This document shows positions 7,406 to 24,633 of a stretch of 32,000 bases of DNA, piece after piece. How positions within the stretch are numbered: the stretch's first letter is position 1; each line of letters begins with the position of its first letter. Source of the DNA: Candidatus Scalindua sp. (GTDB taxonomy: Bacteria > Planctomycetota > Brocadiia > Brocadiales > Scalinduaceae); contig JAIQZR010000192.1 in NCBI GenBank assembly GCA_021777035.1, forward strand, positions 185 through 32,184. Direction: 5' to 3'. Below the pieces are notes generated by a model. That model ran no database searches, was not told the origin of the DNA, and was given only the letters and a program-made list of their open reading frames with translations. The translations under genes and the position numbers were made by a program.

Positions 7406-7461
7406 TTCTGCCATACCTTGGAAGCAGAAGATCGCTGGTTCAAATCCAGTCGAGCAATCCA
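7406..7461 (+). pseudogene. tRNA-Pro(UGG)-derived 3' fragment (anticodon arm with a 5-nt insertion, T-arm, acceptor 3' strand, CCA)
   Basis: The sequence reads TTCTGC-CATAC-CTTGGAA-GCAGAA-GATC-GCTGG-TTCAAAT-CCAGT-CGAGCAA-T-CCA. It has a canonical T-loop and a CTTGGAA anticodon loop (UGG). I found no D-arm or 5' acceptor strand (TTGYTYG) upstream. A T7 run follows at 7462-7468. Confidence 0.45.
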
Positions 7462-7552
7462 TTTTTTTGAGCCACAAAAAATAGAAATGCACACTTTATC
7501 AGCCTATTAAGTACCAGGTTTTAACTTTCTAACAAAATCTCTGAAAATCAAT

Positions 7553-8578: not shown

Positions 8579-8628
8579 GCATCTTCTAAAAAAAATAAAA
8601 CCTCAAAAGTTTCATTCCGTTAAAACCC

Positions 8629-9453
8629 ATGAAACCCGCTCGTTTAATCGCTGACAAGATAAAGGACAACCTACACACAAATGTAATAGGCCGCGAAGTA
8701 ATTACACTTGAACGTGCCGCTTCGGCAATGGACATTGCAAAAGAGATGCTCAAGGAAGGTGCTGCAGAAGGAACAACAATTTTCGTTGAAGAGCAAACTC
8801 GAGGAAGAGGACGGTCAGGGAGAGAGTGGTACTGCAAGGATGGAAAAGGGTTGTTGCTGACGGTTGTCTTAAAACCAGTAATTCAACCTAAAAAATCGTA
8901 TCTTTTAATGGTTTTTACTGCTGTTGCAATCGTAAAAACGATCAGGGATATGTTCAAATTACCAGTGGAAATCGACTGGCCTAATGACCTTGTAATTAAT
9001 AATAAGAAATTAGGCGGTATAATTGTAGAAACACAAAATAATACCGGACAATCAAAAGACTACATTGTAGGCATTGGTATTAATGTCAATTTAAAAAAGC
9101 ATGAGCTTCCGGGTCACATAGATCAGCCGATAACATCTCTTGCCATTGAAAAAGAAACATTTGTAGACCGTGCCAATTTTGCAAGAGCATTGCTGCAGAA
9201 TCTAGATTCATGGTACTTAATCCTAAAAGATGAACGCCACGAACATATTGTGGAGAAGTGGCAAGAATTCTGCGTGAACATTGGAAGAATGGTCAACGTA
9301 CGTAATGCTAAAAAAGAATTTACGGGAATTTTTCTAGGAATTTCTAATAACGGAGAATTGATACTACAACTCGATAATGGACGCAAAAGAAATTTCAAAG
9401 TTGAACACACTATTATGAATCACCATACATCATCCACTTTTGTATCCTCGTAG
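8629..9453 (+). CDS. birA: Biotin--[acetyl-CoA-carboxylase] ligase (group I, no N-terminal HTH)
   Basis: BPL signature EEQTRGRGRSGREW (GRGRxGRxW), followed by KWPNDL-like IDWPNDLVINNKKLGGII. Confidence 0.8.
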   Translation: MKPARLIADKIKDNLHTNVIGREVITLERAASAMDIAKEMLKEGAAEGTTIFVEEQTRGRGRSGREWYCKDGKGLLLTVVLKPVIQPKKSYLLMVFTAVAIVKTIRDMFKLPVEIDWPNDLVINNKKLGGIIVETQNNTGQSKDYIVGIGINVNLKKHELPGHIDQPITSLAIEKETFVDRANFARALLQNLDSWYLILKDERHEHIVEKWQEFCVNIGRMVNVRNAKKEFTGIFLGISNNGELILQLDNGRKRNFKVEHTIMNHHTSSTFVSS

Positions 9454-9989
9454 TTAATTAGACCCGCATTAAGTTGTTTTTCCACAATTTCCAGCTTTGT
9501 TTCCAATCTATCGATTTGTTTTGTCAAATCTTTATAGACTATGAAACCAAGAATCAGCAATAAAACTGTGTAAACAATTACAAATGTAGTTGCGGGGCTC
9601 TCTTTGTGTGTTGTTTCATGAGGTTTTGCATGATAATCATACGTATCTTTACCCAAAACAACCTTCCGATTTGCCTCTGTTACGTCACCGATCCCAAAAG
9701 CGTCTTCATCCTGTTTATCACTAGATTCTATTACGCTACCAAGCTCCCGGATCTTGTTCCCCTGTAGACTAAGCGTCTCTGATACATCAATAGGTTCGTA
9801 CGCTTTTTCTTCCTGTTTTTCTTCGTACTTTGTACCTGTCTCTTTGTTATCACTTACTGGGTCAAGCGGTTTTTCTGTCTGCACTTCCTGACTATCTATA
9901 TCACCCTTCAGGTTTGCGGTATCTTCTTTTTTGTCATTTTCCTTCAACCACTTAAAAGGATCAGTCCCAAGCACACTTTTCTTTTGCAT
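9420..9989 (-). CDS. Hypothetical acidic, single-pass membrane protein with C-terminal coiled coil; candidate ParA partner
   Basis: The N-terminus is MQKKSVLGTDPFKWL. A long D/E/K-rich segment follows, then one TM helix (TTFVIVYTVLLLILGFIVY) and KQIDRLETKLEIVEKQL. The ATG at 9989 is preceded by AAGGAAAG. It lies directly downstream of the ParA-like gene. Confidence 0.55.
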   Translation of the reverse strand: MQKKSVLGTDPFKWLKENDKKEDTANLKGDIDSQEVQTEKPLDPVSDNKETGTKYEEKQEEKAYEPIDVSETLSLQGNKIRELGSVIESSDKQDEDAFGIGDVTEANRKVVLGKDTYDYHAKPHETTHKESPATTFVIVYTVLLLILGFIVYKDLTKQIDRLETKLEIVEKQLNAGLINYEDTKVDDVW

Positions 9990-10130
9990 AAAGCTTTCCT
10001 TCAGTAACAAACGTCACCAAAATTATACAATTTACAAACTAACAAATACGGCTGGTACAACTCAAGAGTTGTTATTAATATCGCAAGGAACACACGCCTT
10101 TCAATATTAATAATTTATGTGTCCCCCACT

Positions 10131-10898
10131 TTAAATACTTTTCTCTTGAGCAATTATCTCTTTAGTTAGTGCCACATAATCCTGAGCGCCATTAGACTCT
10201 GGAGCGTATACCGTAATTGGCATACCATGGCTTGTTGATTCTGAAAGTTTAATATTTTTTCTTATACAAGTGACAAACACCTTGTCTTCAAAATATTCTT
10301 TAATCTTGTCAAGCACCGCCTGCCCCAACTTTGTCCTGCTATCATACATACAAGCTATTATTCCGGTAATCTCTAACGAACTGTTCAGCCTTTTCTTGAT
10401 AATATCAAAAGTTTGCAACAACTTGCTTACGCCCTGTAACGCAAAGAACTCAGTTTGCACAGGAATGAAAATTTCGTTAGCGACAGTAAGTGCATTCAGG
10501 GTTAGAAGCCCTAGAGAAGGTGGGCAATCGATTAAAACGTAATCATACACATTTAACATCTCACCAAGATAGAACTTAACTATCGTTTCACGCCCCACAG
10601 TGTTAACAAGCTCCACCTCCGCACTTGCAAGATCAATATCAGAAGGAATAAGATCCAGACCACTTATGGCCGTTTTGATTAATACCTCAGAAACGTTCTT
10701 CTTACCGCACATTATCTGATAAATTGATAAATCTTTCCCCTGAGCGTTAACACCGTAATGGATACTTAAATTAGCTTGAGGATCGAGATCTATCAGTAGC
10801 ACCTTTTTACCAAGTGCAGCGAGACATGCTCCAACGTTTGCAGTAGATGTCGTTTTCCCAACCCCGCCTTTTTGATTTATAAACGCAATGCTACGCAA
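10131..10898 (-). CDS. ParA/Soj/MinD-family P-loop ATPase (orphan; no ParB adjacent)
   Basis: Deviant Walker A INQKGGVGKTT, Walker A' LLIDLDPQANLS and Walker B VLIDCPPSLG. TTG start after AGAGGG. Confidence 0.85.
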   Translation of the reverse strand: MRSIAFINQKGGVGKTTSTANVGACLAALGKKVLLIDLDPQANLSIHYGVNAQGKDLSIYQIMCGKKNVSEVLIKTAISGLDLIPSDIDLASAEVELVNTVGRETIVKFYLGEMLNVYDYVLIDCPPSLGLLTLNALTVANEIFIPVQTEFFALQGVSKLLQTFDIIKKRLNSSLEITGIIACMYDSRTKLGQAVLDKIKEYFEDKVFVTCIRKNIKLSESTSHGMPITVYAPESNGAQDYVALTKEIIAQEKSI

Positions 10899-11247
10899 CT
10901 TGACCCTCTTTGATATACGTTTTTTGTGGAATACACAATAGGCTAATAGCGGAAAGTTTATCCATACTAAATATTGTTGTCAAGGATATTTATATAAAAT
11001 GCCCGTTATAATTATTATAAAAATCCTATAGCTTTACATACTTGTGCATACATTGTCAGTCATGCACAATGTCGTTTCAGCACTCTTTTCGCGGACTTAT
11101 TAATCGAAAAAGCATACATTATCAACACTTTCTGCTCTTGACTCTTATTATATTCCGTTTGGAAGGAATATCTATTATTACCAATGCTAATCATCCACAC
11201 AAAAACACAACGCAAATTGTCCTAAGATTGTTGTTGTAAGATTGTTA

Positions 11248-11276
11248 TTGACATATCGATAGAAGTCTGTTATTTT
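11248..11276 (+). promoter_or_regulatory. Candidate promoter for the ACP-led operon
   Basis: TTGACA (11248-11253), 17 nt, TATTTT (11271-11276). A 10-nt direct repeat TAAGATTGTT (11223-11232 and 11237-11246) lies immediately upstream. This would give a leader of about 160 nt. Confidence 0.3.
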
Positions 11277-11442
11277 CCCTATTTCATTAATTTTCTTTTT
11301 GTCATAATCAAATTTCATCAATATATTATATAGGCCAGCAGTTTTAAAAAACAACTCCATATTGCCAATTTACTTATTTTAATTTGGTTGGCATTTTGAG
11401 TACAGTTTAGAGTTCTGGTTGTTTATTAAGGGAGGTAAGATA

Positions 11443-11697
11443 TTGTCTGTAGAAAACTTAGAGAAAGACATCACTGCAATTGTCGCTGAAGTAACCGAAC
11501 TGGAAGAAAATGAAATATGGGAGAAAAGGGATGCCGACTTTTTTAAGGATTTGGAAATTGATTCCTTACTAGCACTAGAAATCCTGGCCCTTATAGAAAA
11601 GAAATTTAAAGTTCAAATTCCGGAAGAAAAACTCGTAGACATTACATCGTTGAATGCAACAATCGAGATGACAAGATCTACACTTGAAGGAAAATAG
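11443..11697 (+). CDS. Acyl carrier protein (cluster-specific ACP paralogue)
   Basis: Phosphopantetheine attachment motif DLEIDSLLALEIL (DSL). Length is about 84 aa from the TTG at 11443, which lies 7 nt after GGAGG (11431-11435). The ORF-track start at 11419 adds 8 aa. Confidence 0.85.
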   Translation: MSVENLEKDITAIVAEVTELEENEIWEKRDADFFKDLEIDSLLALEILALIEKKFKVQIPEEKLVDITSLNATIEMTRSTLEGK

Positions 11698-11797
11698 AAA
11701 AAAGCACGTAACGTTTCTTAGTCATCTACGTGTCTATCCACAAACGATAATAGTGGTCATGCAGTGACTATCTAAATAGAACGAAAGGTTATTATAA

Positions 11798-12247
11798 ATG
11801 TTGAATTTTGAGGAAGTAAGAGAGTTGGTTCCTCAAAAATACCCATTCTTATTTATTGATAAAGTTGTTGAACTTCAAAAAGAAAGCAAAATTGTTTGTT
11901 TAAAAAATATAACGGCTAATGAGTCTTTCTTTACTGGACACTTCCCTGATTTTGCCATAATGCCTGGAGTTCTGATCGTAGAAGCCCTGGCGCAAGCCTC
12001 GATTATCCTCTTCAAAAAGAGCTTCGATACTGAGCAGTACAAAGATAAGATCTTTTTGTTGGCATCTGCTAACGTTCGGTTTTCAAAACCTGTTTTTCCT
12101 GGCGACCAGCTTTTTCTGGAAATTGAAATAGAAAAAGTAATTTCCAGTGCGGCAATAGTTAAGGGTGTGGCCAAAGTGGGAGACAAAGTTGTAACAAAGG
12201 CAACTTTGAGTTTTGGAGTTGCAAATAAAGATACATTAACGGGTTGA
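11798..12247 (+). CDS. fabZ: 3-hydroxyacyl-ACP dehydratase, FabZ family
   Basis: Hot-dog dehydratase signature FFTGHFPDFAIMPGVLIVEALAQ, with the catalytic His and Glu present. Confidence 0.9.
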   Translation: MLNFEEVRELVPQKYPFLFIDKVVELQKESKIVCLKNITANESFFTGHFPDFAIMPGVLIVEALAQASIILFKKSFDTEQYKDKIFLLASANVRFSKPVFPGDQLFLEIEIEKVISSAAIVKGVAKVGDKVVTKATLSFGVANKDTLTG

Positions 12248-12276
12248 AAATATGAATCTTCACAAAGTAAAGAACC

Positions 12277-13497
12277 ATGGATAAAAGAATTGTAATTACC
12301 GGTATGGGTGTAATTTCTCCCATAGGAAACGATAAAGATGCATTTTGGGATGCATTGATTTCCGGCACGTCCGGTGTTTCAGATGTCACATCATTTGACA
12401 CCTCGCCTTTCAAAGTACATAGAGGCTGTTTCGTTAAAGATTTCAATTATGATAATTATAAAAATAATGGTTCAAGTCGTGAAATTGGCAAAGGCTCACA
12501 ATTTGCGGTTGCAGCGGCAAAGCTGGCTATCGAAGACTCTAATATTGGTTTAAAGAATATTGATCCGGAAAGAGCTGGTGTTTCAATTGGAACAACTGCA
12601 GGAGAAATTCAGATTCTGGAAAAAGTGAACTATGTAAGACATGAAAAGGGAGAGGATAGTGTTGACCCTAGCTTGTTCCCTATGCATCCTTGCGTTAATA
12701 TGCCATCTAACATATCTATTGAATTTGGCTTTAAGGGACCAAGCACAATAATACCTACCGCATGTGCGGCTGGAAACTATGCAATCGGCTACGCATGTGA
12801 TTTGATAAAACTAGGAAGAGCCGATATAATGCTAGCCGGTGGATCAGATCCATTTTCTAAAGTAGCGTTTGTCGGTTTTAGTAGGTTAAATGCCATCGCG
12901 CCAGACATTTGTCAACCTTTTGACAAAAACAGAAAAGGCCTGTTAGTTGGCGAAGGCGCAGGAATGTTGGTATTAGAATCCCTCGAAGGTGCACTGGCCA
13001 GAAACGCAAATATTTATGCAGAAATCCTGGGTTACGGCTTGAGTTGTGATGGTTATCACATTACAATCCCGCACCCGGAAGGCAATGGCGTCACTTCTGC
13101 TATGAAAAAAGCCTTGAAAGATGCCAAAATTAGACCAGAAGATGTTCAGTATATGAGTGCGCATGGCACAGGAACAGTTGCCAACGACAAGGCCGAAACC
13201 ATATCGATAAAGAAGATCTTTGGCGAACATGCAAAAAATCTGGCCATAAGCTCTATAAAATCGATGCTTGGTCATACAATGGGAGCTGCCAGCGCCATTG
13301 AAGCAATTGCATGTGCTTTAGCTATAAAAGAAGGTGTTGTGCCGCCAACAATAAACTACGAAACAAAAGACCCTGAGTGCGATTTGGATTTTGTTCCAAA
13401 CGTTAAACGCGAAATGCAAGTCGATATTGCCATGAATAACGCATATGCTTTTGGTGGTAACAATAGTAGTCTCATACTCAAAAAGTTTACTGGTTAA
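12277..13497 (+). CDS. fabF: Beta-ketoacyl-ACP synthase II (FabF-type), catalytic triad intact
   Basis: Active-site Cys in PTACAAGN, and the two His in SAHGTGT and [12 protein letters not shown]. The C-terminus is the typical [14 protein letters not shown]. Confidence 0.9.
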
Positions 13498-13589
13498 GAA
13501 TTCAAAACTAAGATAGTGTTAATTTTCATACCGATATTAGAATTGTTCGGTTTAAAAAAGATTTTAAGTAAAAGAGGTTGGCAATTTAT

Positions 13590-14825
13590 ATGAATGGTCG
13601 TTTGGTCATAACAGGAATAAGCGTCTTATCGTCAATCGGAGAAAACCAGGATGAGTTCTGGACTAATTTGATCAATGGTGTTTCCGGGATAAAAGATATC
13701 ACGCTATTTGACGTCTCAAAATACAAAAGTAAAAAAGCTGGTGAAATATCAGATTTTGATGCTAAAGCATACTTAGGCAAAAAGGGGATTCGTCATATAG
13801 ACAGGACATCGCTATTGGTATCTTCGGCGGCAAAACTTGCCATGGACGATGCTAATATCACCCACGAAACTTACAGTGCCGATGAACTGGGAATAGTAAT
13901 CGGATCAACGTATGGCAGTATTGACAGTATCGGTTCATTCGATCTGGAGGGATTAAAGGAAGGTCCAACTTTCGTAAATCCCATGGATTTTCCAAACACT
14001 GTCCTTAATGCACCAGCAAGTAGGGTATCTATTTTCTGTAATGCTACCGGTTTAAATTCTACAATTTCTACAGGAACTGCCAGTGGATTGGATGCTATCA
14101 TTTATGCCTCTGATTTTTTAAGACTAGGCAGAGGAAAAGCCGTATTAGCCGGTGGAGTCCATGGTTTAACTCCGGACATTTTCTGGGGAGCTTACAGATC
14201 AGGAGTATTGTCGGCCAGCAGTAACGGTGGTATAGAAATATCCTCTCCATTTGATAAAAGACGCAACGGTTTCATAATTGGAGAGGCGTCGGCGTTACTG
14301 GTAATAGAAAGACTTGATGACGCACGGGAAAGAAATGCTAAGATCTATGCCGAGATAAAGGGATACGGAAGCACATTTAACCCTGACAAGATTTCTCATG
14401 ACAACATTGATACCACTCAAGGCGTAAGATGCATATCTACAGCAATGAAAGACGCCGGGATTAATTCTGACGAAGTTTCTTACATATCCGCATGCGCTAA
14501 TTCCAGTGTGACCGGAGACAAAATGGAAGCTAAAATTATTAGAGACTATTTTGGTGATAACGCTGATAATGTCCCTGTAAGTGCTATAAAATCAATGACA
14601 GGAGAATGCCTGGACGCATCAGGGTCACTACAGAGCGTTGCTGGTGTATTGGCAATTAATAATAGTATTATCCCTCCAACAATTAACTATCAGGAAAAAG
14701 ATGAAGAGTGTAATCTGGATTGTGTTCCAAACAATAGCAGAAAATCTGAAGTTAAAAATGTACTTATCAACTCCTTTTCCGATACAGGCAACATTTCTTC
14801 CTTAATCATCTCAAAATATTCATAA
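13590..14825 (+). CDS. Ketosynthase-like protein lacking the Cys-His-His triad (chain-length-factor-like partner)
   Basis: Aligns with the upstream KS along its whole length. PTACAAGN becomes STGTASGL (Cys to Thr). SAHGTGT becomes SACANSS (His to Cys). KSMLGHTMG becomes KSMTGECLD (His to Glu). I prefer the ATG at 13590; the ORF-track TTG is at 13578. Confidence 0.85.
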   Translation: MNGRLVITGISVLSSIGENQDEFWTNLINGVSGIKDITLFDVSKYKSKKAGEISDFDAKAYLGKKGIRHIDRTSLLVSSAAKLAMDDANITHETYSADELGIVIGSTYGSIDSIGSFDLEGLKEGPTFVNPMDFPNTVLNAPASRVSIFCNATGLNSTISTGTASGLDAIIYASDFLRLGRGKAVLAGGVHGLTPDIFWGAYRSGVLSASSNGGIEISSPFDKRRNGFIIGEASALLVIERLDDARERNAKIYAEIKGYGSTFNPDKISHDNIDTTQGVRCISTAMKDAGINSDEVSYISACANSSVTGDKMEAKIIRDYFGDNADNVPVSAIKSMTGECLDASGSLQSVAGVLAINNSIIPPTINYQEKDEECNLDCVPNNSRKSEVKNVLINSFSDTGNISSLIISKYS

Positions 14826-14844
14826 CTTCATAGCGACAGTTTCC

Positions 14845-16278
14845 ATGAGTAATTTCTCCCTGAACAAATCTGAAATAAAATCTAAGTATGACGTAATTGT
14901 ACTGGGAGCTGGGATTGCCGGACTAATCTGCGGAACTTTCCTGGCAAAACAGGGAAAGAAAGTTCTAATTATTGAACAACATAGTATTCCCGGAGGTTAT
15001 TGTACTTCTTTTAAGAGAAAAGGTTTTATCTTTGATGCCGCTGTCCATCATATTGGTGGGTGTGGAAAATGGAGCGTAGTTGGTAGGTGCCTTAAAGAAC
15101 TCGATATAAATATTAATTTTCTACGGCTTGATCCTATGGACAGCATCCATTTTCCTTCATTTTCAGTGGAAATACCTGCTGATATTGACGATTATGTAGA
15201 TCTGTTGAAGGAACGGTTTCCATCAGAAAGTAAAAAAATATCACTTTTCTTTAAAGAATTTATTAGACTATACAGGGCTACATTTAGCACAGATGAGCAT
15301 GAAATGCTTATCAAATACCAAGACCTTACTTATAAAGAAATGCTGGAGAACTTTTTTACTGATGAGCAGCTTAAGATGACTTTATCTGCACAGTGGGGAT
15401 ACATTGGTTCACCACCACATGAGGTTTCGGCTATTGGTATGTGCCAGATGTTAGTAAATTATCTAAAAGACGGAGCCTATTTCCCCGTCGGTGGTACCCA
15501 GAATTTTGCCGATGCAATCACTCAAAAATTTATTGACTATGGCGGCCACATTATGCTATCTTCTAGCGTTGAGACGATTTCCACAGATAGTAATATTATA
15601 AAAGGAGTTACAACGAATAAAGGGGGAGAAATTATGGCTGATACCTTTGTGTCAAATATTGATCCCAAACAAACCTTTTTGCGCTTGTTAGACAAAAATA
15701 CCGTTGATAGCTCATTTCTACACAGGATCGAGAACATGAAAGAAAGCGTTTCATTCTTTTTACTATACCTTGGCCTTGACAATAGAGTAGACTTAAAAAA
15801 GTTAAAAAGGGGTTTTTACCATACATCAAATAACTTAAGCGCTTCTGATAGTGATTGGTTTTATATTTCCGTTCCCACGGAGGTTGATTCAAGCTTGGCA
15901 CCTGATAATAAACAGATAATATCTGTTGTTGTCTCTTCAAGGGATAGTTACGACGACATAGACAATTGGGACACGTACAAAGATAAAATGAAAAAATACA
16001 CATTAAATTACCTGGAAAATTTTGTACCCGATATTCAGAATCATATTGTTGTAACTGACGCTGCCACGCCTAAAACTCTATATCGTTATACACACAACTC
16101 AAAAGGCGCAGCTTATGGCGGGGCCGTTACCGTAGACCAAACATGGTCAAATAGACTTCCACACACAACACCCTTCAAAAATCTTTTTCTAGCGGGGCAC
16201 TGGACAAATCCGGGTCCAGGAATATGTGCGGTTGTATCCTCTGGTTGGAGGGTAGCTAATATGATTTTAAATAATTAG
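14845..16278 (+). CDS. Phytoene-desaturase-like (CrtI/CrtD family) FAD-dependent oxidoreductase
   Basis: N-terminal dinucleotide fold YDVIVLGAGIAGLICGTFLAKQGKKVLIIEQHSIPGGYC. C-terminal FAD motif LFLAGHWTNPGPGICAVVSSG. Confidence 0.85.
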   Translation: MSNFSLNKSEIKSKYDVIVLGAGIAGLICGTFLAKQGKKVLIIEQHSIPGGYCTSFKRKGFIFDAAVHHIGGCGKWSVVGRCLKELDININFLRLDPMDSIHFPSFSVEIPADIDDYVDLLKERFPSESKKISLFFKEFIRLYRATFSTDEHEMLIKYQDLTYKEMLENFFTDEQLKMTLSAQWGYIGSPPHEVSAIGMCQMLVNYLKDGAYFPVGGTQNFADAITQKFIDYGGHIMLSSSVETISTDSNIIKGVTTNKGGEIMADTFVSNIDPKQTFLRLLDKNTVDSSFLHRIENMKESVSFFLLYLGLDNRVDLKKLKRGFYHTSNNLSASDSDWFYISVPTEVDSSLAPDNKQIISVVVSSRDSYDDIDNWDTYKDKMKKYTLNYLENFVPDIQNHIVVTDAATPKTLYRYTHNSKGAAYGGAVTVDQTWSNRLPHTTPFKNLFLAGHWTNPGPGICAVVSSGWRVANMILNN

Positions 16279-16290
16279 GAGGATAACAAT

Positions 16291-17757
16291 ATGAGAAAAA
16301 TGATGCTGATAAACCCACATCCCCCTGGAAGGCATGGCGAGGAGAGCATATCTGTCATAGTCCAAATGCCTTTAAACCTGGCATACATTGCAGCCCTTAC
16401 ACCGGGTGACTGGGAGTTTGATGTAATCGATGAAAATATAGAGCTGGCCCTTGATGATAATGGAGATATTACATTTGAGCCGGTAGATATGGTTTGTATT
16501 ACTTCTGTTACCTATCAAGTGTCTAGAGCTTACAAGATTGCAGAGATCTGCAGAAAAAAAGGCATGACCGTAGTCATGGGTGGCATACACGCTTCAGTAG
16601 TACCTGAAGAAGCTTCAAAATATGTAGATGCAATTTTTATCGGAGAGGCCGAAACACTGTGGCCACAAGTCATTAAAGATTTTGAAAATGGCGAACTCAA
16701 AAAGAGGTACGAAGGCGGGCTGCCAGGCCTGTCAGAAATGAAACATGTATTTCCGAATAGGGAACTCCTGAAAAAGAAATATGATTACAAGTTATCATCA
16801 ATTGTTACAACTAAAGGTTGTCCAAATTACTGCGATTTCTGTAGCGTACCAACCTTTCAAGGGAAAAAGTATAGAGAAAGACCGTATGAAGATGTTCTAG
16901 ACGAGATGGAAGCCACTGACTACAAGGGCCTGATGTTTGCCGAAGATAATTTTTATGGCCATAGTAAGAACTCTGCCAACAGAGCAAAAGCCCTCTTTCG
17001 TGGAATGATAGAAAGGGGCATTAAAAAGGACTGGCTTGGATTTACTGCACTCAATATATCAAAGGATGCAGAGGTACTTGACCTGATGGCGAAAAGTGGA
17101 AATTTTGGTTTTCTCTGCGGAATAGAATCGACAAATGAGGCTGTTCTGGAGAAGATGAATAAAACTACTAATTTAAGGATTGGGGCTGATAATTATTATG
17201 ACAGCGTTCAGAAAATCCATGATCATGGTCTTGTTGTTTGGGGGTCAATTGTCCTTGGAGCAGATGGTGATGATAAAGATTCCTTCAAAAGAATGACAGA
17301 GTTTGTATTGGAAAACAATATAGACGTACTTACCTTTGGTATTAATTGCCCGTTTCCAAAGACTGCGCTTTATGATAGACTGGATTCTGAAAAGAGGATC
17401 TTCAGAAAGAATTATCCTGAAGACTGGAAATATTATGATACTGCGCATGTTGTTCACAGACTAGTTGATATGACATTAGAGGATTTCATTGAAGGTATGC
17501 AATATATGTATGACCACCTATATGCCGCCGACAATCTGAGGCTGAGATTTAGGAAATCACTACAAACTATTGGCAGTACGACTCACGGCAAACGTAATGC
17601 TATGTTCGGCTTCAGGGTTGGTTCTGATTGGATACAGGTATTTGAACAAGTACTGGAAAATCTTCGTCTACTATACGATTCAGGTGATTACTACAAGGAT
17701 TGGTATAAGAGCAGTGCCGTTACTGTACCATCGGGTAAAGGTGTCGCGGTAAGTTAG
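16291..17757 (+). CDS. B12-binding-domain radical SAM enzyme (class B, DUF4070-type C-terminus)
   Basis: N-terminal cobalamin-binding-like domain (MMLINP...VVMGGIHASV...IGEAE). Radical SAM cluster motif GCPNYCDFC (CxxxCxxC). AGGAGG lies 7 nt before the ATG, which is 12 nt after the desaturase stop. Confidence 0.85.
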   Translation: MRKMMLINPHPPGRHGEESISVIVQMPLNLAYIAALTPGDWEFDVIDENIELALDDNGDITFEPVDMVCITSVTYQVSRAYKIAEICRKKGMTVVMGGIHASVVPEEASKYVDAIFIGEAETLWPQVIKDFENGELKKRYEGGLPGLSEMKHVFPNRELLKKKYDYKLSSIVTTKGCPNYCDFCSVPTFQGKKYRERPYEDVLDEMEATDYKGLMFAEDNFYGHSKNSANRAKALFRGMIERGIKKDWLGFTALNISKDAEVLDLMAKSGNFGFLCGIESTNEAVLEKMNKTTNLRIGADNYYDSVQKIHDHGLVVWGSIVLGADGDDKDSFKRMTEFVLENNIDVLTFGINCPFPKTALYDRLDSEKRIFRKNYPEDWKYYDTAHVVHRLVDMTLEDFIEGMQYMYDHLYAADNLRLRFRKSLQTIGSTTHGKRNAMFGFRVGSDWIQVFEQVLENLRLLYDSGDYYKDWYKSSAVTVPSGKGVAVS

Positions 17758-17789
17758 ACCACAGGCATTTAATGGTAGTTAAATATAGC

Positions 17790-17837
17790 GAGTTCCATGT
17801 TACATGTTGTGTGTTTTCTACTTGTAACATGGAACTC
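17790..17837 (+). terminator. Perfect 15-bp stem / 18-nt loop hairpin just after the operon; no U-tract
   Basis: GAGTTCCATGTTACA (17790-17804) pairs with TGTAACATGGAACTC (17823-17837). It begins 33 nt after the radical SAM stop. Confidence 0.35.
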
Positions 17838-17938
17838 TGTACTCTATTGCTAAGGAGTATATCCAACCACAATGATCACTCCTCTATTTAACCATATCTC
17901 TTCACTTTAACATTGTCAGTGTCTTTATTGGCAAAATA

Positions 17939-17966
17939 TTGACAAATGTTATTTTTAGGGTAAAAT
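17939..17966 (+). promoter_or_regulatory. Sigma70-like promoter for the 18052 gene
   Basis: TTGACA (17939-17944), 16 nt, TAAAAT (17961-17966). It lies about 85 nt upstream of an ATG preceded by AAGGAAGGTGG. Confidence 0.4.
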
Positions 17967-18051
17967 CGATCTTGTACTTAATATTACAAGAACAAGAACT
18001 ACATACATAAGACAGTATTATGGAAGCGTTTAGAAAAAGGAAGGTGGTCCA

Positions 18052-18543
18052 ATGTTAAATTTTTATAGAAAACTTTTTACCTCTACAGTTGCCCTGTTTG
18101 TACTTGTTGTATTAAACTTTACAAATAGCTCAATTAATAATGTACAAGCAGTAGATTATATAAAAAAACCATCAGAAACTCATCATCAGTCATTCGAACC
18201 TTACGAAAACCCAATTGTTATTCCTGATCCAAAACCAAGAGGTGTTGTTGTAAGAGTCAAAGAGATTACAACATACGAAGTAGTTGTTGACGAGCAAAAG
18301 GTGAATGCAAACAAAGTGACCATGGAGGATCTAGATCTTATAGAGTTGAAAGATAAAAAAGATATCAATTTCCACCAGGTGGACTGTTTTTTTTATGCAA
18401 AGGTAAAGCAGACTCAAACAAAATCAACAGACTATATATCAAGCACTAGATGGAGAGAAGGTGAACAATTCTGGTTGTCAGACGGTGGGAAATACGTTGA
18501 GTGGGAACCGTGGTCTGAATGGTATTCAGGTAATAAATGGTAA
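18052..18543 (+). CDS. Hypothetical secreted protein
   Basis: N-terminal hydrophobic signal (LFTSTVALFVLVVLNFTNSS), a strong SD and its own promoter. I recognise no family. Confidence 0.5.
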   Translation: MLNFYRKLFTSTVALFVLVVLNFTNSSINNVQAVDYIKKPSETHHQSFEPYENPIVIPDPKPRGVVVRVKEITTYEVVVDEQKVNANKVTMEDLDLIELKDKKDINFHQVDCFFYAKVKQTQTKSTDYISSTRWREGEQFWLSDGGKYVEWEPWSEWYSGNKW

Positions 18544-18779
18544 TACGTACAACAAGTAGAGAACCTTGTATTCAGAACGTAACTATTGTAGGTTAAGTTT
18601 GCAGTTGCAGATTAGCTTATTTTTACTTCGTTAAAACCTACTGAAAGTAAAAGGAGGTACAATTAACCATACGAGAACCTCTGCTCTGATGAGCAGACAC
18701 TATGAAATACAGGCGCTTTTTCTAGCACTTTGTTCTCCTGGTAATGCCAGACACTTCATCGTAATAGGTGATTGTCACC

Positions 18780-19451
18780 CTAGTGATCTTGAACTCCTTC
18801 TCTTTTTGTTTTATACAATTCGAAAGATTCATCTTTTTTTGCATACTGGCTGATATTTCTGTCAGTATACATTAAAGACATTACCCTGTTCACACCCCTA
18901 TGTGACATCAAATGGAACTCTTCAAGTGTCACCTCCAGATCTTCCTTTAACCACACCATCTTTTTATGTGATTTGTCTTCTTCTACAAAATCCGGCTCGC
19001 CATTTCCCTCTATAAAGATTGTTTCAGTCTTCTTTATATCATTTTCAGCAAATTGTAAAGTATAATCACTCCAACTACTAAGTATGACAATCTTATACAG
19101 TTTATTTTCATAAAAGAAGAATGTGAAACGTCCTCCACCAACACCCCTTGTAAGTAGTGTGACCTTATTGTTTACCATCGGCTCATATTCAGATTTGTCA
19201 GGAGCAGGAAATTGTTTCTGTACTGCACTTAAGCTGATTCCAAAATCAAGCGGTTGTTCTGCTGTTACTGATTCCGAATTGGATTCATTTTCAGATGCAT
19301 AACCAAGCATTGTTTTAATGGTTTCTACATCCTTATATATTTCTTCATCTGTGATTGTCTTTTGATCGGTAGCAACATTCTCTGTTGTGGTACAGTTTTG
19401 AATAATTACCATTGAAAGAATCGACAATAAAACAAACCAGATTTTTTTCAT
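18780..19451 (-). CDS. Hypothetical lipoprotein
   Basis: Signal peptide with a lipobox-like MVIIQNC. It lies downstream of, and on the same strand as, the MoxR gene. I recognise no family. Confidence 0.5.
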   Translation of the reverse strand: MKKIWFVLLSILSMVIIQNCTTTENVATDQKTITDEEIYKDVETIKTMLGYASENESNSESVTAEQPLDFGISLSAVQKQFPAPDKSEYEPMVNNKVTLLTRGVGGGRFTFFFYENKLYKIVILSSWSDYTLQFAENDIKKTETIFIEGNGEPDFVEEDKSHKKMVWLKEDLEVTLEEFHLMSHRGVNRVMSLMYTDRNISQYAKKDESFELYKTKREGVQDH

Positions 19452-19509
19452 ACTAGTTTTTCGATGTCATGGATGAGAATTGAAAAACGGACTCTGAAGT
19501 TCTCTGATA

Positions 19510-20502
19510 TCAAGGTACTTCTATATTATCAAAGATATTTTGTATGACTTTTTCTGCTGTCATTTCTTCTGCCTCTGCTTCATAGGTGATGATCACTCTA
19601 TGACGCAGTACGTCCATTCCTATTGATTTTACATCTTGTGGAGTAACATAGCCCCTGCCTTTGAGAAAAGCATATGCCTTTGACGCAATAGCGAGGTAAA
19701 TAGTCGCCCTGGGCGACGCACCATATTCAATGAATTCGTCTAAATCTAGCCCGTACTTTTGAGGATCTCTGGTGGCAATTACCAAGTCTACTATATAATC
19801 TTTTATCTTATCATCAATATAAATCTGATCGACTACGCCGCGTAAGCGCTTTATATCGCTTGATTTTAAAACAGAATTTACTTTGATACTTGTATCGGTC
19901 AAGGCCATTCTATCCATGATTTCACGTTCTTCACTTTTATTAGGATAATCCACATTAATTTTTAACATGAATCTATCAACCTGTGCTTCCGGTAGAGGAT
20001 AAGTACCTTCTTGTTCAATCGGATTTTGCGTAGCAAGTACCAGGAAAGGGTCTTCAAGTTTAAATGTATCACTGCCAATCGTTACCTGCTTTTCCTGCAT
20101 CGCTTCCAAAAGAGCACTCTGTACCTTTGCGGGTGCCCTATTAATTTCATCAGCAAGAATAATATTTGAGAAAATAGGACCTTTTTTAGTAGTAAACTCT
20201 CCGCTACGAGGATTATATATAAGTGTACCTATCAAGTCTGCCGGCAGAAGATCTGGTGTAAATTGGAGCCGTTGATATTTTACCTGAATTGCTTTTGCCA
20301 GAGTCATTACAGATAATGTCTTTGCTAACCCAGGAACGCCTTCCAACAGGATGTGGCCATTAGCCAGGATGCCAATCAGCAATCTTTCTATGAGATGTTT
20401 TTGTCCTACAATTACTTTCCCCATCTCATTACTCAGATCAGAAAGAACACGGCTCTCTTCCTTGATTACATCAGTTATATTTTTTATATCTTTTGATTCC
20501 AT
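19510..20502 (-). CDS. moxR: MoxR-family AAA+ ATPase
   Basis: Walker A LLEGVPGLAKT. Walker B / sensor region ILADEINRAPAKVQSALLEAMQEKQVTI. Size is typical at about 330 aa. Confidence 0.85.
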   Translation of the reverse strand: MESKDIKNITDVIKEESRVLSDLSNEMGKVIVGQKHLIERLLIGILANGHILLEGVPGLAKTLSVMTLAKAIQVKYQRLQFTPDLLPADLIGTLIYNPRSGEFTTKKGPIFSNIILADEINRAPAKVQSALLEAMQEKQVTIGSDTFKLEDPFLVLATQNPIEQEGTYPLPEAQVDRFMLKINVDYPNKSEEREIMDRMALTDTSIKVNSVLKSSDIKRLRGVVDQIYIDDKIKDYIVDLVIATRDPQKYGLDLDEFIEYGASPRATIYLAIASKAYAFLKGRGYVTPQDVKSIGMDVLRHRVIITYEAEAEEMTAEKVIQNIFDNIEVP

Positions 20503-20719
20503 AATTTATACCTTTTCAGTCGTAGCGACTATAGCCTTTTTTTTGGGAGTTATTCTCTTGCACGTAGACTTTCGCTGGAACTATGGATGTTAGAAGAGAA
20601 CTCTTACTAAAAAAGCGATTAAAAAGCCAGCTAGTTTTTTTCAGATTTGCATAAAACCATAGCCTAGTAGTCGTCTGGAGCAAAAGCCAACGTCTAATAA
20701 TCTTATTAATCAGTATTAG

Positions 20720-23023
20720 TTATTGAATTTCTCTTACTACACTTGCTTCTATCAGATCTTGAATCTTGTTTTTGTTCATTAGGTAGACAAAGTTTGTCTC
20801 TGAACCGGTAACATAATAATCATTACCGGCCTCTTTCCCTACCAGCAATGAAGCCTCGCCATCGTCAAAACTGATAGTGATGTTAAACTGTGGGTTATCA
20901 AACCCATATTTTGATAAATTCTCGTTTGAATACTGTACAATAAACTCACCCATCAGCAATTTCATTGAAGAGATTATTCTATCTGCCAAATTCCCGCTCA
21001 ATAGTATATTTTCTGGCTTGATCATACGCCACATCTGTTCTTCATTTTTCTGAAAAAGCAACTCCTTTTCAGGATGTATTATTTTAATAGACTTTGCATT
21101 CGCACTATCGAAGCTGAACAACGTTCTTGTGACAAGCTCGATACTATAATCCCTGACGTCAGTCCACCCTACCTGAAAAATCATGCCTTCGCCATCCACT
21201 TTCGCATAATAATTAGACTTATCTTTCTCCGGTTCCACTTTATTTCCTATCAGGAGTGTCTTTGTCTTCAATTCTTTTGGCTTTACCAGATCATCTTTCT
21301 GGCTAATTACATGATCACCTTGTGGAGCCACACCAGCATCTTCATATGTTAAAGATGCACTTAACAGGGGATTATCAAATCCATAATCAGCAGAGTTTTC
21401 GGATGAAAGAGCAACTATCTTATCCGCCAACAGAAACGAGAGGTTCCATACCACTTGATTAATGGAGTCCAGTTCAGCTTGCATTGATACAGGGCTAATC
21501 ATATTCCACTTCGGTCTACGCATAGTAGAATCGTCTGCCGTCTCACATATGAGTGTTTTGCCATCCCTTTTGATAACCATTTTCTGAGCACTTTCCTTAG
21601 GGAATTCCATGACTAACTTGTCTCTGAATGCGAGATAACCTTCCGTGGCAATATCATAGAAATTCTCCGATGGTACCGTATAAACCGCATCTTCTCCGTC
21701 TCGTCTCACGTAGCACAGTCCACCATTTTCATCAGCATTACCTATTAAGAATTTCACAGTTTCACCTTCGCCAATCCTCCTGAAGACTGAAACTTCGATA
21801 GGTGAACCTGCTAATCCATACTTTTCAAAGTTAGTACCGCTATCATCAACATATTGCTGTATCTGCAAATCCTTAATTTTTTCTACAAATTCTCTTACAA
21901 CGTCTCTATCAGCAAGAATCTCTTTTGGCGATTTAATCATCCAATCATATTGTACCGTTTTTTCCATAACAAGTGTCGAATCAGGATATTTTAAATCAAT
22001 TTTTTCTATACCGTAAGTGCCGATTGCATCAAACCTCAAGAGCTGCTTGTCACGCAAATCATTTAATTCCAGATCCAGATCGCGAAGAAACATATCCTGT
22101 ACAAAGAAAATTGAACTTTCTCCGTCAAGCTTTGCATAAATTTTTTCATCCAGGCTGTGTCCCAAATGGATAGTTTGCACATCGTTTGCAGTACCAATGC
22201 TGAGAGTAAACACGGGCTTATCCAGTCCGTAGTTGATAATATCTTCTTCGCTATCGGACACAAAATCTTCTTTAGCGATCTTCAGGTTTTTCAATTCATT
22301 GAGCATATCATTGATTCTCTCAGTATCAGCACGGTCTGAAAGCGGTTGTGTTATCCACCAGAGTTGCTCGGCCTTCGAACACACCACAGAATCATTCGAC
22401 TCTCTCTCAAGCCGAACCCTCTCTACCGAATGTTTATCAAACTCAAAAGCCCATTTACTTCTTAAATCATTGATATCTTTGTCTATTTTCTCCAGGAATT
22501 TAGCGTCAACGACAGAAACATCCTTGTCGTCACCCACTGTTATATATACCGTGTCTTGTCCTGCAGCCAGCTTGTCTCCGATATTGACGGTATACCTGGC
22601 AACATCTCCAGATGTTCCGCCAACCATTGAACCCTTTTTCAACCAGAGGCTAATGGTAATAGCTGGAGTTTCAAGACCATACTCTTTCAAACTGAAATTT
22701 GTAGTCTCACTTTTTTCAACAATACCTATTTTTCTCAGAAACTCAAATTGTGAGAGAATTTCAGCCACTTCAGCTTTGTCAGCTCTTAACTGTAGCGGTT
22801 CCAACATCCGCCATGTTTCATTATCAGTGCTCTCAAGGACAATATTAGTATTCCCCTTTTTCATTTCTATTTTATTAATCTGGCCTGGTTTATAATCTGG
22901 CAGTGCCATTTGTTGTCTCTGTACCCACACATCTGTTCTATATTGCTTTCTGTCATATAGAAATATGTATGCCGCACCAATGCCTGCTACTATTAAGAGT
23001 ATTATTGTAGTTTTAAACTTCAT
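20720..23023 (-). CDS. DUF4340-domain protein (accessory component of GldG-type ABC systems)
   Basis: N-terminal TM anchor. Five repeated modules each carry a YG(L/F)(D/E)xP motif: KEYGLETP, INYGLDKP, EKYGLAGSP, ADYGFDNP, SKYGFDNP. It lies directly downstream of the GldG-like gene. Confidence 0.7.
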   Translation of the reverse strand: MKFKTTIILLIVAGIGAAYIFLYDRKQYRTDVWVQRQQMALPDYKPGQINKIEMKKGNTNIVLESTDNETWRMLEPLQLRADKAEVAEILSQFEFLRKIGIVEKSETTNFSLKEYGLETPAITISLWLKKGSMVGGTSGDVARYTVNIGDKLAAGQDTVYITVGDDKDVSVVDAKFLEKIDKDINDLRSKWAFEFDKHSVERVRLERESNDSVVCSKAEQLWWITQPLSDRADTERINDMLNELKNLKIAKEDFVSDSEEDIINYGLDKPVFTLSIGTANDVQTIHLGHSLDEKIYAKLDGESSIFFVQDMFLRDLDLELNDLRDKQLLRFDAIGTYGIEKIDLKYPDSTLVMEKTVQYDWMIKSPKEILADRDVVREFVEKIKDLQIQQYVDDSGTNFEKYGLAGSPIEVSVFRRIGEGETVKFLIGNADENGGLCYVRRDGEDAVYTVPSENFYDIATEGYLAFRDKLVMEFPKESAQKMVIKRDGKTLICETADDSTMRRPKWNMISPVSMQAELDSINQVVWNLSFLLADKIVALSSENSADYGFDNPLLSASLTYEDAGVAPQGDHVISQKDDLVKPKELKTKTLLIGNKVEPEKDKSNYYAKVDGEGMIFQVGWTDVRDYSIELVTRTLFSFDSANAKSIKIIHPEKELLFQKNEEQMWRMIKPENILLSGNLADRIISSMKLLMGEFIVQYSNENLSKYGFDNPQFNITISFDDGEASLLVGKEAGNDYYVTGSETNFVYLMNKNKIQDLIEASVVREIQ

Positions 23024-23046
23024 AATTTAATTAAAGCCTCCGATTA

Positions 23047-24633
23047 TTATCTTCTTCTTCTCCACCAGACGAAGCCGCCAATTATTATTCCAATAGAAGG
23101 TAGTCCTGCAATAGACAACCAAAATATTGCGGCTAGTTGTCCAGGTCTGACAATAGCCCTTCTGACATCAGGAGCCTTTGCTGATATCCCTAACTCCTTT
23201 TCCCTCCTAGCCAGCCAGCTTATCGCATTTAAGACAAGATCCTGATTACCCGGATTATCAGAAAATGCGTTTGCGGCAAAATCTGTATCACCAAAGATAA
23301 CAACACGTGGCCCCTTTTTACCAATATCTGCAAACGCCTGCGTAGCATGTGGAGGTGCAGTAGGATTTGGCTTCGCTTCTCTTAACTCCGATGCCACTGC
23401 TAATATAATCGGAGAGCTGATGTCCGAATCCTCATCATATTTTGGTCTTTTTTTACCAACTATCTCAGTTTCACCCCAACTTTGATCAGGGGCCTGTACA
23501 ATCCCTACTGCAGAAAATGCCATTGCATCACTCAATGGGACAATACTAAGTGCGCTTGAACCATAGAAAACAGACGTCAGCTTTTTGATGTCGTTTGTGA
23601 TTTCGTGGTCTAAGTACTTATCATCACTTATATATACCTCAACAACTGTCTGCATACCAAAAAGCGGCATATTCACTTTGTTGTATACAACCGCATCATC
23701 CCTGACCACTACGCCATACTCTCCTAGCAATGCACTTAAGCCGGATGATTTATTCACACCTACGGCAGGCTCCAGCATTACGATTAACTTGCCGTTTTTA
23801 AGTTCACCCTTATCATTTATCAACCTTGCTGAAGTCCCTACATAGTCGCGGATGTAGTTTGTCTCTTGTGTTGAGAAATTCTTTGTTGGTCCTGCGATGA
23901 AGAGTATGTCGCAATTTTCAGGAACTCTCTTCTGTTTTAGCAAATCAAGAGGCAGGACGTTGTAATTAGCACGCTTGATAGCACTTGCCAGATTTCCAAT
24001 CCCTGCTCGCTCAAAGTCTCCGTAATCTCTCTCTCCATGTCCTTTGGTAAAGTACACGTTTGTCTGTTTTTCTCGTGTTACATTTAAGACGGCAGACGTG
24101 AAGATCTCTTCGCCCTTGAATTTAAAAGGAAATTCTCTTTCAATTACTTCAGATTGCAGTACATGCTTACTCTTATCTCCACAAGTGAAAATTATGGAGT
24201 TTATTTGCAATTGCTCCAGATCCATCTTGAGCTTCTCTGCAAGCTCAGTTATTTTTGTACGATCGGTCAAAGGGTTCAGAAGAGTAACCGTTATTTTATC
24301 TGATAAATACTTGTATTCCTCTAGTATGTCTATAACCTGCCCGTAAAAACGGTAGTCCTGTTTTTTTACCAGAAGTGAAGTAATAAAAACGGGTTGATCT
24401 AGATTTTTCAGAATTTTCTTTGTTTTGGCAGTTAATGAGTATTTTCCCGACGCAGTAAAGTCGCAACGATAATAATGCCTATCGTTAATGTAGCTGACAA
24501 ATACAAAGATGGCTACTGCGATAAGTATCATAAAGATTACATTAGCCCCGATCAGGGTTTTCTTTTTTCTTATATCTTGTGGATTCTCTGATGTTGTTAC
24601 TTCTTTATTATTCAATGACTTTCCTACCTCCAC
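23047..24633 (-). CDS. GldG-like ABC-transporter auxiliary protein (ABC_transp_aux)
   Basis: TM helices at both ends (C-terminal LAAIFWLSIAGLPSIGIIIGGFVWWRRRR) flank a large extracytoplasmic domain. It follows and overlaps the ABC-2 permease. Confidence 0.7.
   Translation of the reverse strand: MEVGKSLNNKEVTTSENPQDIRKKKTLIGANVIFMILIAVAIFVFVSYINDRHYYRCDFTASGKYSLTAKTKKILKNLDQPVFITSLLVKKQDYRFYGQVIDILEEYKYLSDKITVTLLNPLTDRTKITELAEKLKMDLEQLQINSIIFTCGDKSKHVLQSEVIEREFPFKFKGEEIFTSAVLNVTREKQTNVYFTKGHGERDYGDFERAGIGNLASAIKRANYNVLPLDLLKQKRVPENCDILFIAGPTKNFSTQETNYIRDYVGTSARLINDKGELKNGKLIVMLEPAVGVNKSSGLSALLGEYGVVVRDDAVVYNKVNMPLFGMQTVVEVYISDDKYLDHEITNDIKKLTSVFYGSSALSIVPLSDAMAFSAVGIVQAPDQSWGETEIVGKKRPKYDEDSDISSPIILAVASELREAKPNPTAPPHATQAFADIGKKGPRVVIFGDTDFAANAFSDNPGNQDLVLNAISWLARREKELGISAKAPDVRRAIVRPGQLAAIFWLSIAGLPSIGIIIGGFVWWRRRR

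Follow-up and report, generated by a model that had tools for sequence, protein, structure and literature searches.

The window analysed here, a 32,000-nucleotide (nt) stretch of a Candidatus Scalindua sp. contig (JAIQZR010000192.1), contains a row of six genes on one strand, which encode an acyl carrier protein (ACP), a FabZ-type 3-hydroxyacyl-ACP dehydratase, an active ketosynthase (KS), a catalytically dead KS homologue resembling a chain-length factor (CLF), a phytoene-desaturase-homologous enzyme dependent on flavin adenine dinucleotide (FAD; hereafter PDH) and a radical S-adenosylmethionine enzyme with a B12-binding domain (rSAM) (Table 1). Our analysis centred on the last two genes. Along the row ACP-FabZ-KS-CLF-PDH-rSAM the intergenic gaps measure 100, 29, 80, 19 and 12 nt. 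The open reading frame (ORF) map and the raw sequence agree to the base with a preliminary description of this DNA, made from the letters alone, which had reported a 12-nt spacer between the PDH stop codon and the rSAM ATG (GAGGATAACAAT) and an AGGAGG motif ahead of that ATG.

The KS retains its catalytic triad, Cys163/His296/His333, in the motifs TACAA, SAHGT and LGHTM. In contrast, the CLF, when aligned to the active KS, has Thr/Cys/Glu at the triad positions. The FabZ homologue scores 154.9 bits against NCBIfam fabZ, slightly below the cut-off of 155.15. The start codon of the ACP gene is uncertain: the longest ORF begins with a TTG at 11419 and contains a strong GGGAGG at 11430-11435, and a start further downstream is suggested because the Kuenenia homologues comprise 86 amino acids (aa), as compared to 92 aa in the window. 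In the presumed promoter region ahead of the row, sigma-70-like matches, for example at 11248-11276 and 11299-11327, are consensus matches only. Rfam and tRNA scans of the window, including this region, gave no match, and we therefore place no riboswitch ahead of the operon. The hairpin downstream of the rSAM gene folds at -25.2 kcal/mol (z = -5.83), and 0 of 200 shuffled sequences were equally stable. Lacking a T-run, it was missed by a simple terminator scan and spotted by eye, with its folding confirmed computationally; it is likely the transcript end or a stabilising hairpin of the operon. Because this hairpin, together with a gap of 294 nt between the rSAM stop codon and the next ORF, closes the row downstream, the pair comes last in an operon-like unit of six genes.

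Table 1 Features of the Candidatus Scalindua window and full cassettes at loci outside anammox bacteria (positions refer to the sequence named in the first column)
Sequence	Feature	Position	Strand	Remarks
Window	Presumed promoter region of the six-gene row	10899-11418	+	AT-rich, 520-nt intergenic region between a divergent ParA-like gene and the ACP gene; from ORF map
Window	ACP (amxACP orthologue, kuste3603-type)	11419-11697	+	Pfam PP-binding 51.4 bits; DSL motif present
Window	FabZ-type 3-hydroxyacyl-ACP dehydratase (amxFabZ orthologue, kuste3604-type)	11798-12247	+	Pfam FabA 97.5 bits; syntenic in all loci
Window	Active KS (amxFabF2 orthologue, kuste3605-type)	12277-13497	+	Pfam ketoacyl-synt N- and C-terminal domains
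Window	Catalytically dead KS homologue, CLF-like (amxFabFmut, kuste3606-type)	13578-14825	+	Assigned by alignment to the active KS
Window	PDH (kuste3607 orthologue)	14845-16278	+	ATG start, 477 aa, TAG at 16276-16278
Window	PDH signature segment	Residues 63-74 of 14845-16278	+	FDAAVHHIGGCG
Window	Shine-Dalgarno sequence AGGAGG	16277-16282	+	Overlaps the PDH stop codon, 8 nt 5' of the rSAM ATG; from sequence
Window	rSAM with B12-binding domain (kuste3608 orthologue)	16291-17757	+	ATG start, 488 aa
Window	15-bp perfect inverted repeat (hairpin)	17790-17837	+	32 nt past the rSAM stop codon; no T-run
Window	MazE-like/PemK-MazF-like toxin-antitoxin pair	585-1248	+	Overlapping genes
Window	1151-aa protein	3355-6810	-	Peptidase M1, peptidase M28 and C-terminal PDZ domain
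Window	Row of MoxR AAA ATPase, 767-aa DUF4340 protein, GldG-like ABC auxiliary, ABC-2 permease and ABC ATPase	19510-26280	-	
Window	PqqD-like protein (91 aa), HprK-related kinase A homologue (291 aa), NTP_transf_5 nucleotidyltransferase (417 aa)	27281-29628	+	Kinase homologue: TIGR04352 103 bits, below cut-off
L064	Full cassette	5798-12050		Labelled Blastocatellia
L067	Full cassette	6912-12905		Labelled Acidobacteriota; 381-kb contig
L068	Full cassette	6844-16149		Labelled Spirochaetales
L076	Full cassette	6810-16252		Labelled non-Brocadiales Planctomycetota; 479-kb contig
L078/L079	Full cassette	6859-13655		L079, Planctomycetota; 884-kb contig
L080	Full cassette, larger version	4101-21437		
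L081	Full cassette, larger version	4852-20117		

In order to place the first protein of the pair, we combined domain searches with a structural model. PDH matches Pfam Amino_oxidase (90 bits) and NAD_binding_8 (55.6 bits), and it carries the GAGIAG dinucleotide-binding motif residues as well as a family-specific FDAAVHHIGG segment. In line with the Pfam matches, its AlphaFold2 model (predicted local distance difference test score, pLDDT, 92.6) combines the FAD-binding Rossmann domain and the amine-oxidase-type substrate domain of the CrtI family. The nearest Protein Data Bank folds found by Foldseek were 4REP (template modelling score, TM, 0.83) and 4DGK, the CrtI of P. ananatis (E = 7e-27), to which PDH is also related by sequence (E = 1.4e-25). 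Comparison with the curated carotenoid families, which included crtI_fam (TIGR02734) and the equivalogs CrtD, CrtN-type and CRTISO, left the protein under the cut-offs (crtI_fam, 165.1 versus 238.1 bits; carot_isom, 150.5 versus 586.9; CrtD, 143.3 versus 549.7; CrtID, 142.2 versus 640). Fold, Pfam and NCBIfam thus agree with the CrtI-like assignment of the preliminary description at superfamily level, below every curated carotenoid cut-off. Where P. ananatis CrtI has FDAGPTVI, PDH reads FDAAVHHI, with His-His in place of Pro-Thr. Both histidines (H68/H69) are invariant in 30 cassette-type homologues, and H69 is missing from all eight outgroup sequences; Q201-M202, R322-G-F324 and Y340/S342 are likewise invariant in cassette-linked PDHs. 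Judging from the alignments, the His-His motif and the other invariant residues are a candidate catalytic signature that sets these proteins apart from carotenoid desaturases.

The second protein has a Pfam B12-binding domain (PF02310, 39.0 bits with a cut-off of 32.1, residues 27-123), a Radical_SAM domain (57.7 bits) and a DUF4070 match just above threshold (22.7 bits versus 22). Its [4Fe-4S] motif CxxxCxxC, here CPNYCDFC, occurs once, at residues 177-184. With this motif and an N-terminal Rossmann-type B12-binding domain ahead of the barrel, rSAM has the make-up of a class B enzyme. Since C177, C181 and C184 are the only invariant cysteines in 40 sequences, it has no auxiliary cluster. The AlphaFold2 model (pLDDT 90.1) resembles AprD4 (6FD2) most closely, followed by MgmA (9CCB), TsrM, TokK, CysS and OxsB, at TM scores of 0.6-0.7 in Foldseek. 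All curated families tried remained far out of reach, namely TIGR04072 'rSAM_ladder_B12' (86.3 versus 360 bits), PhpK (82.1 versus 600), HpnJ (81.9 versus 577.6), BchE (77.6 versus 481) and HpnR (75.5 versus 650). The earlier label 'BchE/HpnR-like' is therefore appropriate for the superfamily and fails for the family, and, placed by curated cut-offs, neither protein of the pair reaches a family of carotenoid, hopanoid or bacteriochlorophyll enzymes. Clustering of the library at 50% identity reduces the rSAM family to one representative at 60%, followed by one neighbour at 47% and then a broad continuum at 35-44%; the ten nearest neighbours at this level gave no NCBIfam family match at 1e-30.

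To see how the pair is arranged elsewhere, one genome per GTDB species was scanned with an alignment of the flavoprotein, which yielded 77 loci, and the six window proteins were mapped onto these by tblastn. The order and strand of the six genes were kept in these loci wherever the contig was long enough. By automatic count, rSAM starts no more than 400 nt past PDH in 69 of the 71 loci that have at least 600 nt after the PDH gene; of the two exceptions, L019 has a 100-N scaffold gap interrupting rSAM, and in L072 PDH was only partly matched by tblastn. Between the PDH stop and the rSAM start the median distance is 7 nt; 64 of 70 loci do not exceed 30 nt, and several show ATGA overlaps. In most lineages among these 70 loci a GGAGG lies within the PDH stop region or adjoins it: Scalindua loci share the stop-overlapping Shine-Dalgarno sequence of the window, and in Brocadia, Kuenenia and Jettenia GGAGG abuts the PDH stop on its 5' side. 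Across Brocadiales, rSAM ranks with the most strongly conserved proteins of the row (69-97% identity to the window), with 71-99% for ACP and 55-89% for PDH. On these sequence comparisons, the tight PDH-rSAM junction is not a product of chance.

Five loci have a PDH-rSAM spacer, normally 4-12 nt, that has grown to 81-187 nt (L018, 11401-11563; L049, 6916-7009; L054, 7008-7093; L052, 11434-11622; L074, 11422-11504). The inserts of L018, L049 and L054 are palindromic and repeat-like, and in all five loci a GGAGG-type Shine-Dalgarno sequence is re-formed right before the rSAM ATG (GGGAG in L074). In the 71 loci with room for it, the pair always follows ACP, FabZ, KS and CLF and never stands beside isoprenoid genes. 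Its adjacency to fatty-acid genes is accordingly not peculiar to this genome and extends to distant non-anammox genomes, so that the case named in the preliminary description as refuting its reading, with orthologues elsewhere always next to isoprenoid genes, did not arise. One apparent outlier, L002 (CAXMPV010000082.1, 7968 bp), is labelled Thermodesulfobacteriota; we regard it as a likely mis-binned Scalindua contig, as its cassette is 87-97% identical and it carries Scalindua-like ParA and BirA genes.

Comparing the window with the complete genome of K. stuttgartiensis (CP049055.1) showed the same order, ACP86-FabZ149-KS406-KS412-PDH489-rSAM486 (numbers are lengths in aa). The window rSAM is 78% identical to the syntenic K. 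stuttgartiensis protein (P0271) and PDH 60% identical in the Kuenenia loci L043 and L047; in a neighbour-joining tree, the window protein clusters with those of Brocadia and Kuenenia. A search for PDH homologues returned one 100%-identical NCBI protein, encoded on a 43.5-kb contig although an exact-sequence look-up among contigs gave no match for PDH, then Ca. Scalindua sequences at 84-90%, other Scalinduaceae at about 72% and Brocadia, Kuenenia and other Brocadiales at 58-63%. At the 90% identity level, rSAM clusters with Ca. Scalindua proteins. The GC content of 39.4% and flanking genes syntenic with other Scalindua contigs agree with this origin. The window holds no hydrazine-synthase gene, and its assignment to an anammox (Brocadiales) host therefore rests on similarity. 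The one-strand order ACP-FabZ-FabF2-FabFmut-PDH-rSAM that characterises anammox 'Cluster I' is found in the window and in about 70 Brocadiales loci. The second KS of the window, its CLF, also lacks the Cys-His-His triad and has Thr at the Cys position, as described for Cluster I of Scalindua. With the gene names kuste3603-3608 assigned as published (PMC4790861), the pair almost certainly represents, by sequence and synteny, the Ca. Scalindua orthologues of kuste3607 and kuste3608, the last two genes of Cluster I.

Rattray et al. put these genes forward for ladderane-lipid biosynthesis in 2009 (PMC2649909); the cluster was then synthesised and expressed by Javidpour et al. in 2016 (PMC4790861) and dissected structurally as 'Cluster I', first for amxACP and amxFabZ (Dietl 2023, PMC10139942) and then for the amxFabF2/amxFabFmut heterodimer (Granatino 2026, bioRxiv 10.64898/2026.05.19.726425). 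The Cys-to-Thr state of Scalindua amxFabFmut was published in the latter study, and the window CLF agrees with it. The Scalindua pair is thus already known and is an ordinary orthologue of the 2009 cluster. The preliminary description had reasoned from the neighbouring ACP, FabZ and KS genes that the two enzymes act on an ACP-tethered acyl chain. As far as sequence evidence reaches, this interpretation is supported; it rediscovers, without recognising Cluster I, a published hypothesis, because the literature already proposes that the PDH homologue and the radical SAM enzyme act on an ACP-bound acyl chain (PMC2649909, PMC4790861, PMC10139942, bioRxiv 10.64898/2026.05.19.726425).

How ladderanes, with up to five fused cyclobutane rings, are made anaerobically is a long-standing open problem, and this gene pair is the prime suspect for key steps. 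We favour, with moderate confidence, the reading that the Cluster I pair is the leading ladderane candidate, acting by desaturation or isomerisation followed by radical C-C bond formation on an ACP-bound chain. No enoyl reductase is encoded in the cassette, and a ketoreductase would come in trans. Together with this ketoreductase, the dedicated ACP, the KS/CLF heterodimer and FabZ would supply short unsaturated (enoyl or polyenoyl) acyl-ACP intermediates, on which PDH may add or reposition C=C bonds, as a desaturase or an isomerase. A 5'-deoxyadenosyl radical generated by rSAM would then abstract a hydrogen and forge C-C bonds, by cyclobutane ring closure or skeletal rearrangement, with cobalamin serving as a radical-stabilising cofactor, as proposed for OxsB and BchE, and not as a methyl donor. 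We infer from the junction that PDH and rSAM are produced together, possibly in stoichiometric amounts as the preliminary description had it, and they would probably work one after the other, or as a complex, on the ACP-tethered chain. Published data fit several of these steps: the KS/dead-KS pair is a KS/CLF-like heterodimer that decarboxylates malonyl-amxACP, and both it and amxFabZ favour C6-C8 substrates (bioRxiv 10.64898/2026.05.19.726425). In addition, Cluster I combines conservation with high expression (PMC10139942), PDH and rSAM have been proposed in the literature for desaturation and cyclisation, and recent reviews count the 'ladderane synthase', with BchE, OxsB and HpnJ, as one of the few cobalamin radical SAM enzymes for which a non-methylating role is proposed. 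Among the published types of route (polyene cyclisation, separate synthesis and ligation, ring-by-ring growth), we regard each one taken singly as unlikely.

The cluster has been described as unique or exclusive to ladderane producers (PMC10139942; bioRxiv 10.64898/2026.05.19.726425). In contrast, full cassettes were present at several loci outside anammox bacteria, all of them in metagenome-assembled genomes (MAGs) or metagenome contigs (Table 1). In L064, L067, L068 and L076, the four loci of the GTDB species scan treated as non-Brocadiales by their labels, the identities to the window are 51-70% for ACP, 44-56% for FabZ, 51-68% for KS, 35-49% for CLF, 39-47% for PDH and 57-60% for rSAM. Searching with the L067 flavoprotein returned about 36 further clusters at 55-89%, including Acidobacteria bacterium 13_1_40CM_2_60_7, Vicinamibacteria and Planctomycetota, then Brocadiales proteins at 43-47%, before identities fell to 37% or less. 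Outside anammox bacteria the cassette usually has a ketoreductase and FabH added to it. Two contigs, the 884-kb one from Planctomycetota and a 120-kb one from soil, showed the gene context ACP-dehydratase-KS-CLF-PDH-rSAM-ketoreductase with FabH nearby. A ketoreductase gene directly follows the rSAM gene or genes in L067, L078/L079 and a JGI contig and lies further downstream in L068, L080 and L081; the two larger versions, L080 and L081, also contain a second rSAM-KS-CLF set, a ferredoxin, an enoyl-CoA hydratase, a ketoreductase and additional ketosynthases. Mis-binning of Brocadiales contigs was rejected for L064, L067, L068, L076 and L078-L081 on account of their GC content (50-72%, compared to 35-55% in Brocadiales loci), contig size and 39-60% identity.

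A second rSAM-KS-CLF set stands directly behind the cassette in L068 (12858-16149), L076 (12949-16252) and L080 (11481-15635). We rejected the extra rSAM of L068 and L076 as an orthologue of kuste2803: the two rSAM copies of L076 group together and share 71-75% identity with that of L067, as compared to about 49-50% for the anammox paralogue. The extra rSAM is therefore a duplicate that arose within the non-anammox clade. A set of the kuste2803-2805 type was found in a Brocadiales-like MAG, 5 kb from Cluster I (L061, 7311-11222, minus strand), its rSAM being 49% identical. The literature that we searched contained no report of a complete cassette outside anammox bacteria. 'Ladderane' calls of the antiSMASH type in Verrucomicrobia and Streptomyces were discarded as evidence for the cassette, the sole gene detail being a ladderane-type ketosynthase in one Verrucomicrobial cluster. 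We therefore raise, tentatively and at low confidence, the possibility that the cassette is not exclusive to anammox bacteria and has an intact sister clade in high-GC Acidobacteriota (Blastocatellia, Vicinamibacteria-type), Spirochaetales and non-Brocadiales Planctomycetota, equipped with a ketoreductase and often a second rSAM-KS-CLF set. Among the present results, these cassettes are the only lead that may be new.

Several points weigh against Cluster I as the source of the ladderane rings. AprD4 shares the B12-like domain of rSAM and presumably does not use cobalamin, so that the cobalamin dependence of rSAM is only something we infer. Methylases make up the majority of characterised class B enzymes, and the argument from ladderane specificity is weakened because the full cassette also occurs in non-anammox genomes. 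The literature is explicit that no experiment ties any Cluster I protein to ladderanes (PMC10139942; bioRxiv 10.64898/2026.05.19.726425). Furthermore, heterologous expression in E. coli produced neither ladderanes nor polyunsaturated fatty acids, and published isotope labelling conflicts with the polyene-cyclisation route (PMC10139942).

In a first alternative, the cassette is a general module of the type II fatty-acid synthase or polyketide synthase (PKS) kind, spread over several phyla, with a non-ladderane product such as a short polyene or a starter unit that is cyclised or has unusual unsaturation. The cyclobutanes of anammox bacteria would then be made by other enzymes, for example the radical SAM proteins of kuste2803-2805 or kuste3335-3352. 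Complete cassettes in L064, L067, L068, L076, L079, L080 and L081, at the deviating GC contents given above, speak for such a module, as do the dead CLF triad and the PDH His-His motif, which the non-anammox cassettes also have. A ketoreductase without an enoyl reductase is what type II systems that form polyenes contain, ApeI/ApeP-like dehydratase families are matched by the FabZ homologues, and anammox genomes carry paralogous rSAM-KS-CLF sets, as in L061. However, anammox bacteria are the sole reported source of ladderanes, and the organisms behind the MAGs may produce lipids of a related kind; the Brocadiales clade shows tight conservation and high expression; and there is no known product other than ladderanes. 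Weighing both sides, we consider the general module a minority possibility, doubtful yet to be kept in view beside the ladderane reading.

A second alternative takes rSAM for a conventional class B methyltransferase that acts on an unactivated or sp2 acyl carbon, with PDH preparing or resolving the double bond, and that leads to methyl-branched fatty acids or to methyl-derived cyclopropane intermediates that are later rearranged. Mid-chain methyl-branched fatty acids occur in anammox bacteria, and the predominance of methylases among characterised cobalamin-dependent enzymes extends to the nearest solved folds, of which four of six (MgmA, TsrM, TokK, CysS) are methyltransferases. A route to ladderanes by cyclopropane rearrangement has been proposed, although cyclopropyl fatty acids have not been found in anammox bacteria (PMC10139942). 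The scores, however, lie far below the methylase cut-offs (see PhpK and HpnR above), and a methyltransferase has no obvious need for an ACP, a dehydratase and a KS/CLF of its own, which makes this alternative improbable. An isoprenoid (carotenoid or hopanoid) pathway that merely adjoins fatty-acid genes, suggested by the superfamily-level likeness to CrtI, CrtD and carotenoid isomerase and to HpnJ, HpnR and BchE and by database names such as 'phytoene desaturase' and 'prolycopene isomerase', is effectively refuted, since all matches fall under the curated cut-offs, domain scans of the window and all related neighbourhoods inspected contained no isoprenoid gene, the ACP/FabZ/KS/CLF adjacency is universal, PDH has FDAAVHHI in place of the CrtI segment FDAGPTVI, and kuste3607 put in place of crtI gave no lycopene and thus does not complement it (PMC4790861).

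The remaining genes of the window lie outside the cassette (Table 1). Of the reverse-strand row that begins with MoxR, the only two members checked, MoxR and the DUF4340 protein, are kept downstream of the cassette in the Scalindua-type loci L005, L006, L007 and L011. The PqqD-like, HprK-related and NTP_transf_5 trio resembles what we take to be accessory sets of the lasso-peptide type, or more widely of ribosomally synthesised and post-translationally modified peptides.

For the ladderane problem, the Scalindua copy itself brings no new information. The comparative results may be of value, namely the universal translational coupling of PDH and rSAM, the conservation of rSAM, the His-His motif of PDH and the cassette in non-anammox phyla. 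If the last of these is true, either ladderane-like or other radical-cyclised lipids exist outside anammox bacteria, or the product of Cluster I is an intermediate of wider use and the cluster alone does not amount to a 'ladderane synthase'. Work on the pathway is blocked by the lack of anammox genetics and by failed heterologous production of the radical SAM enzyme; non-anammox homologues could supply alternative proteins and organisms and, as new enzyme sources for ladderane biosynthesis, might be more soluble or tractable.

Among known systems, the CrtI-type desaturases (P. ananatis CrtI, 4DGK; gamma-carotene desaturase, 4REP) have the same FAD Rossmann and amine-oxidase fold as PDH, but the identity is only 20-21%, and the genomic partners of PDH are ACP, KS and FabZ instead of crtB and crtE. 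BchE, OxsB and HpnJ as well as MgmA, TsrM, TokK, CysS and AprD4 have in common with rSAM a B12-type domain, a barrel with CxxxCxxC and a helical C-terminal domain, while the solved or characterised class B relatives are 12-20% identical to it and its scores are far below each curated cut-off. The highly reducing type II PKS systems that make polyenes with a KS/CLF (ishigamide Iga11/Iga12, aryl polyene) are like the cassette in their discrete ACP, KS with inactive CLF, FabZ-like dehydratase and absence of an enoyl reductase. We know of no PDH-radical SAM pair in these systems. The analogy to them was drawn by Granatino 2026 (bioRxiv 10.64898/2026.05.19.726425). UfaD of furan fatty acid synthesis (PMC7380195), which we liken to PDH by function and which would provide a precedent for its proposed role, is phytoene-desaturase-like and introduces a double bond into a fatty acyl chain beside one that is already there; it works on phospholipid-bound chains and seems to need O2, whereas PDH is from a strict anaerobe and linked to an ACP. 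The closest system by far is K. stuttgartiensis Cluster I, which is like the window in gene order, strand, KS/dead-KS pair, tight PDH-rSAM junction and anammox host, and which differs only at the level of lineages, in having Val in place of Thr at the former Cys position of the dead KS and a PDH-rSAM spacer of 4 nt, as compared to the 12-nt spacer with a stop-overlapping Shine-Dalgarno sequence in Scalindua.

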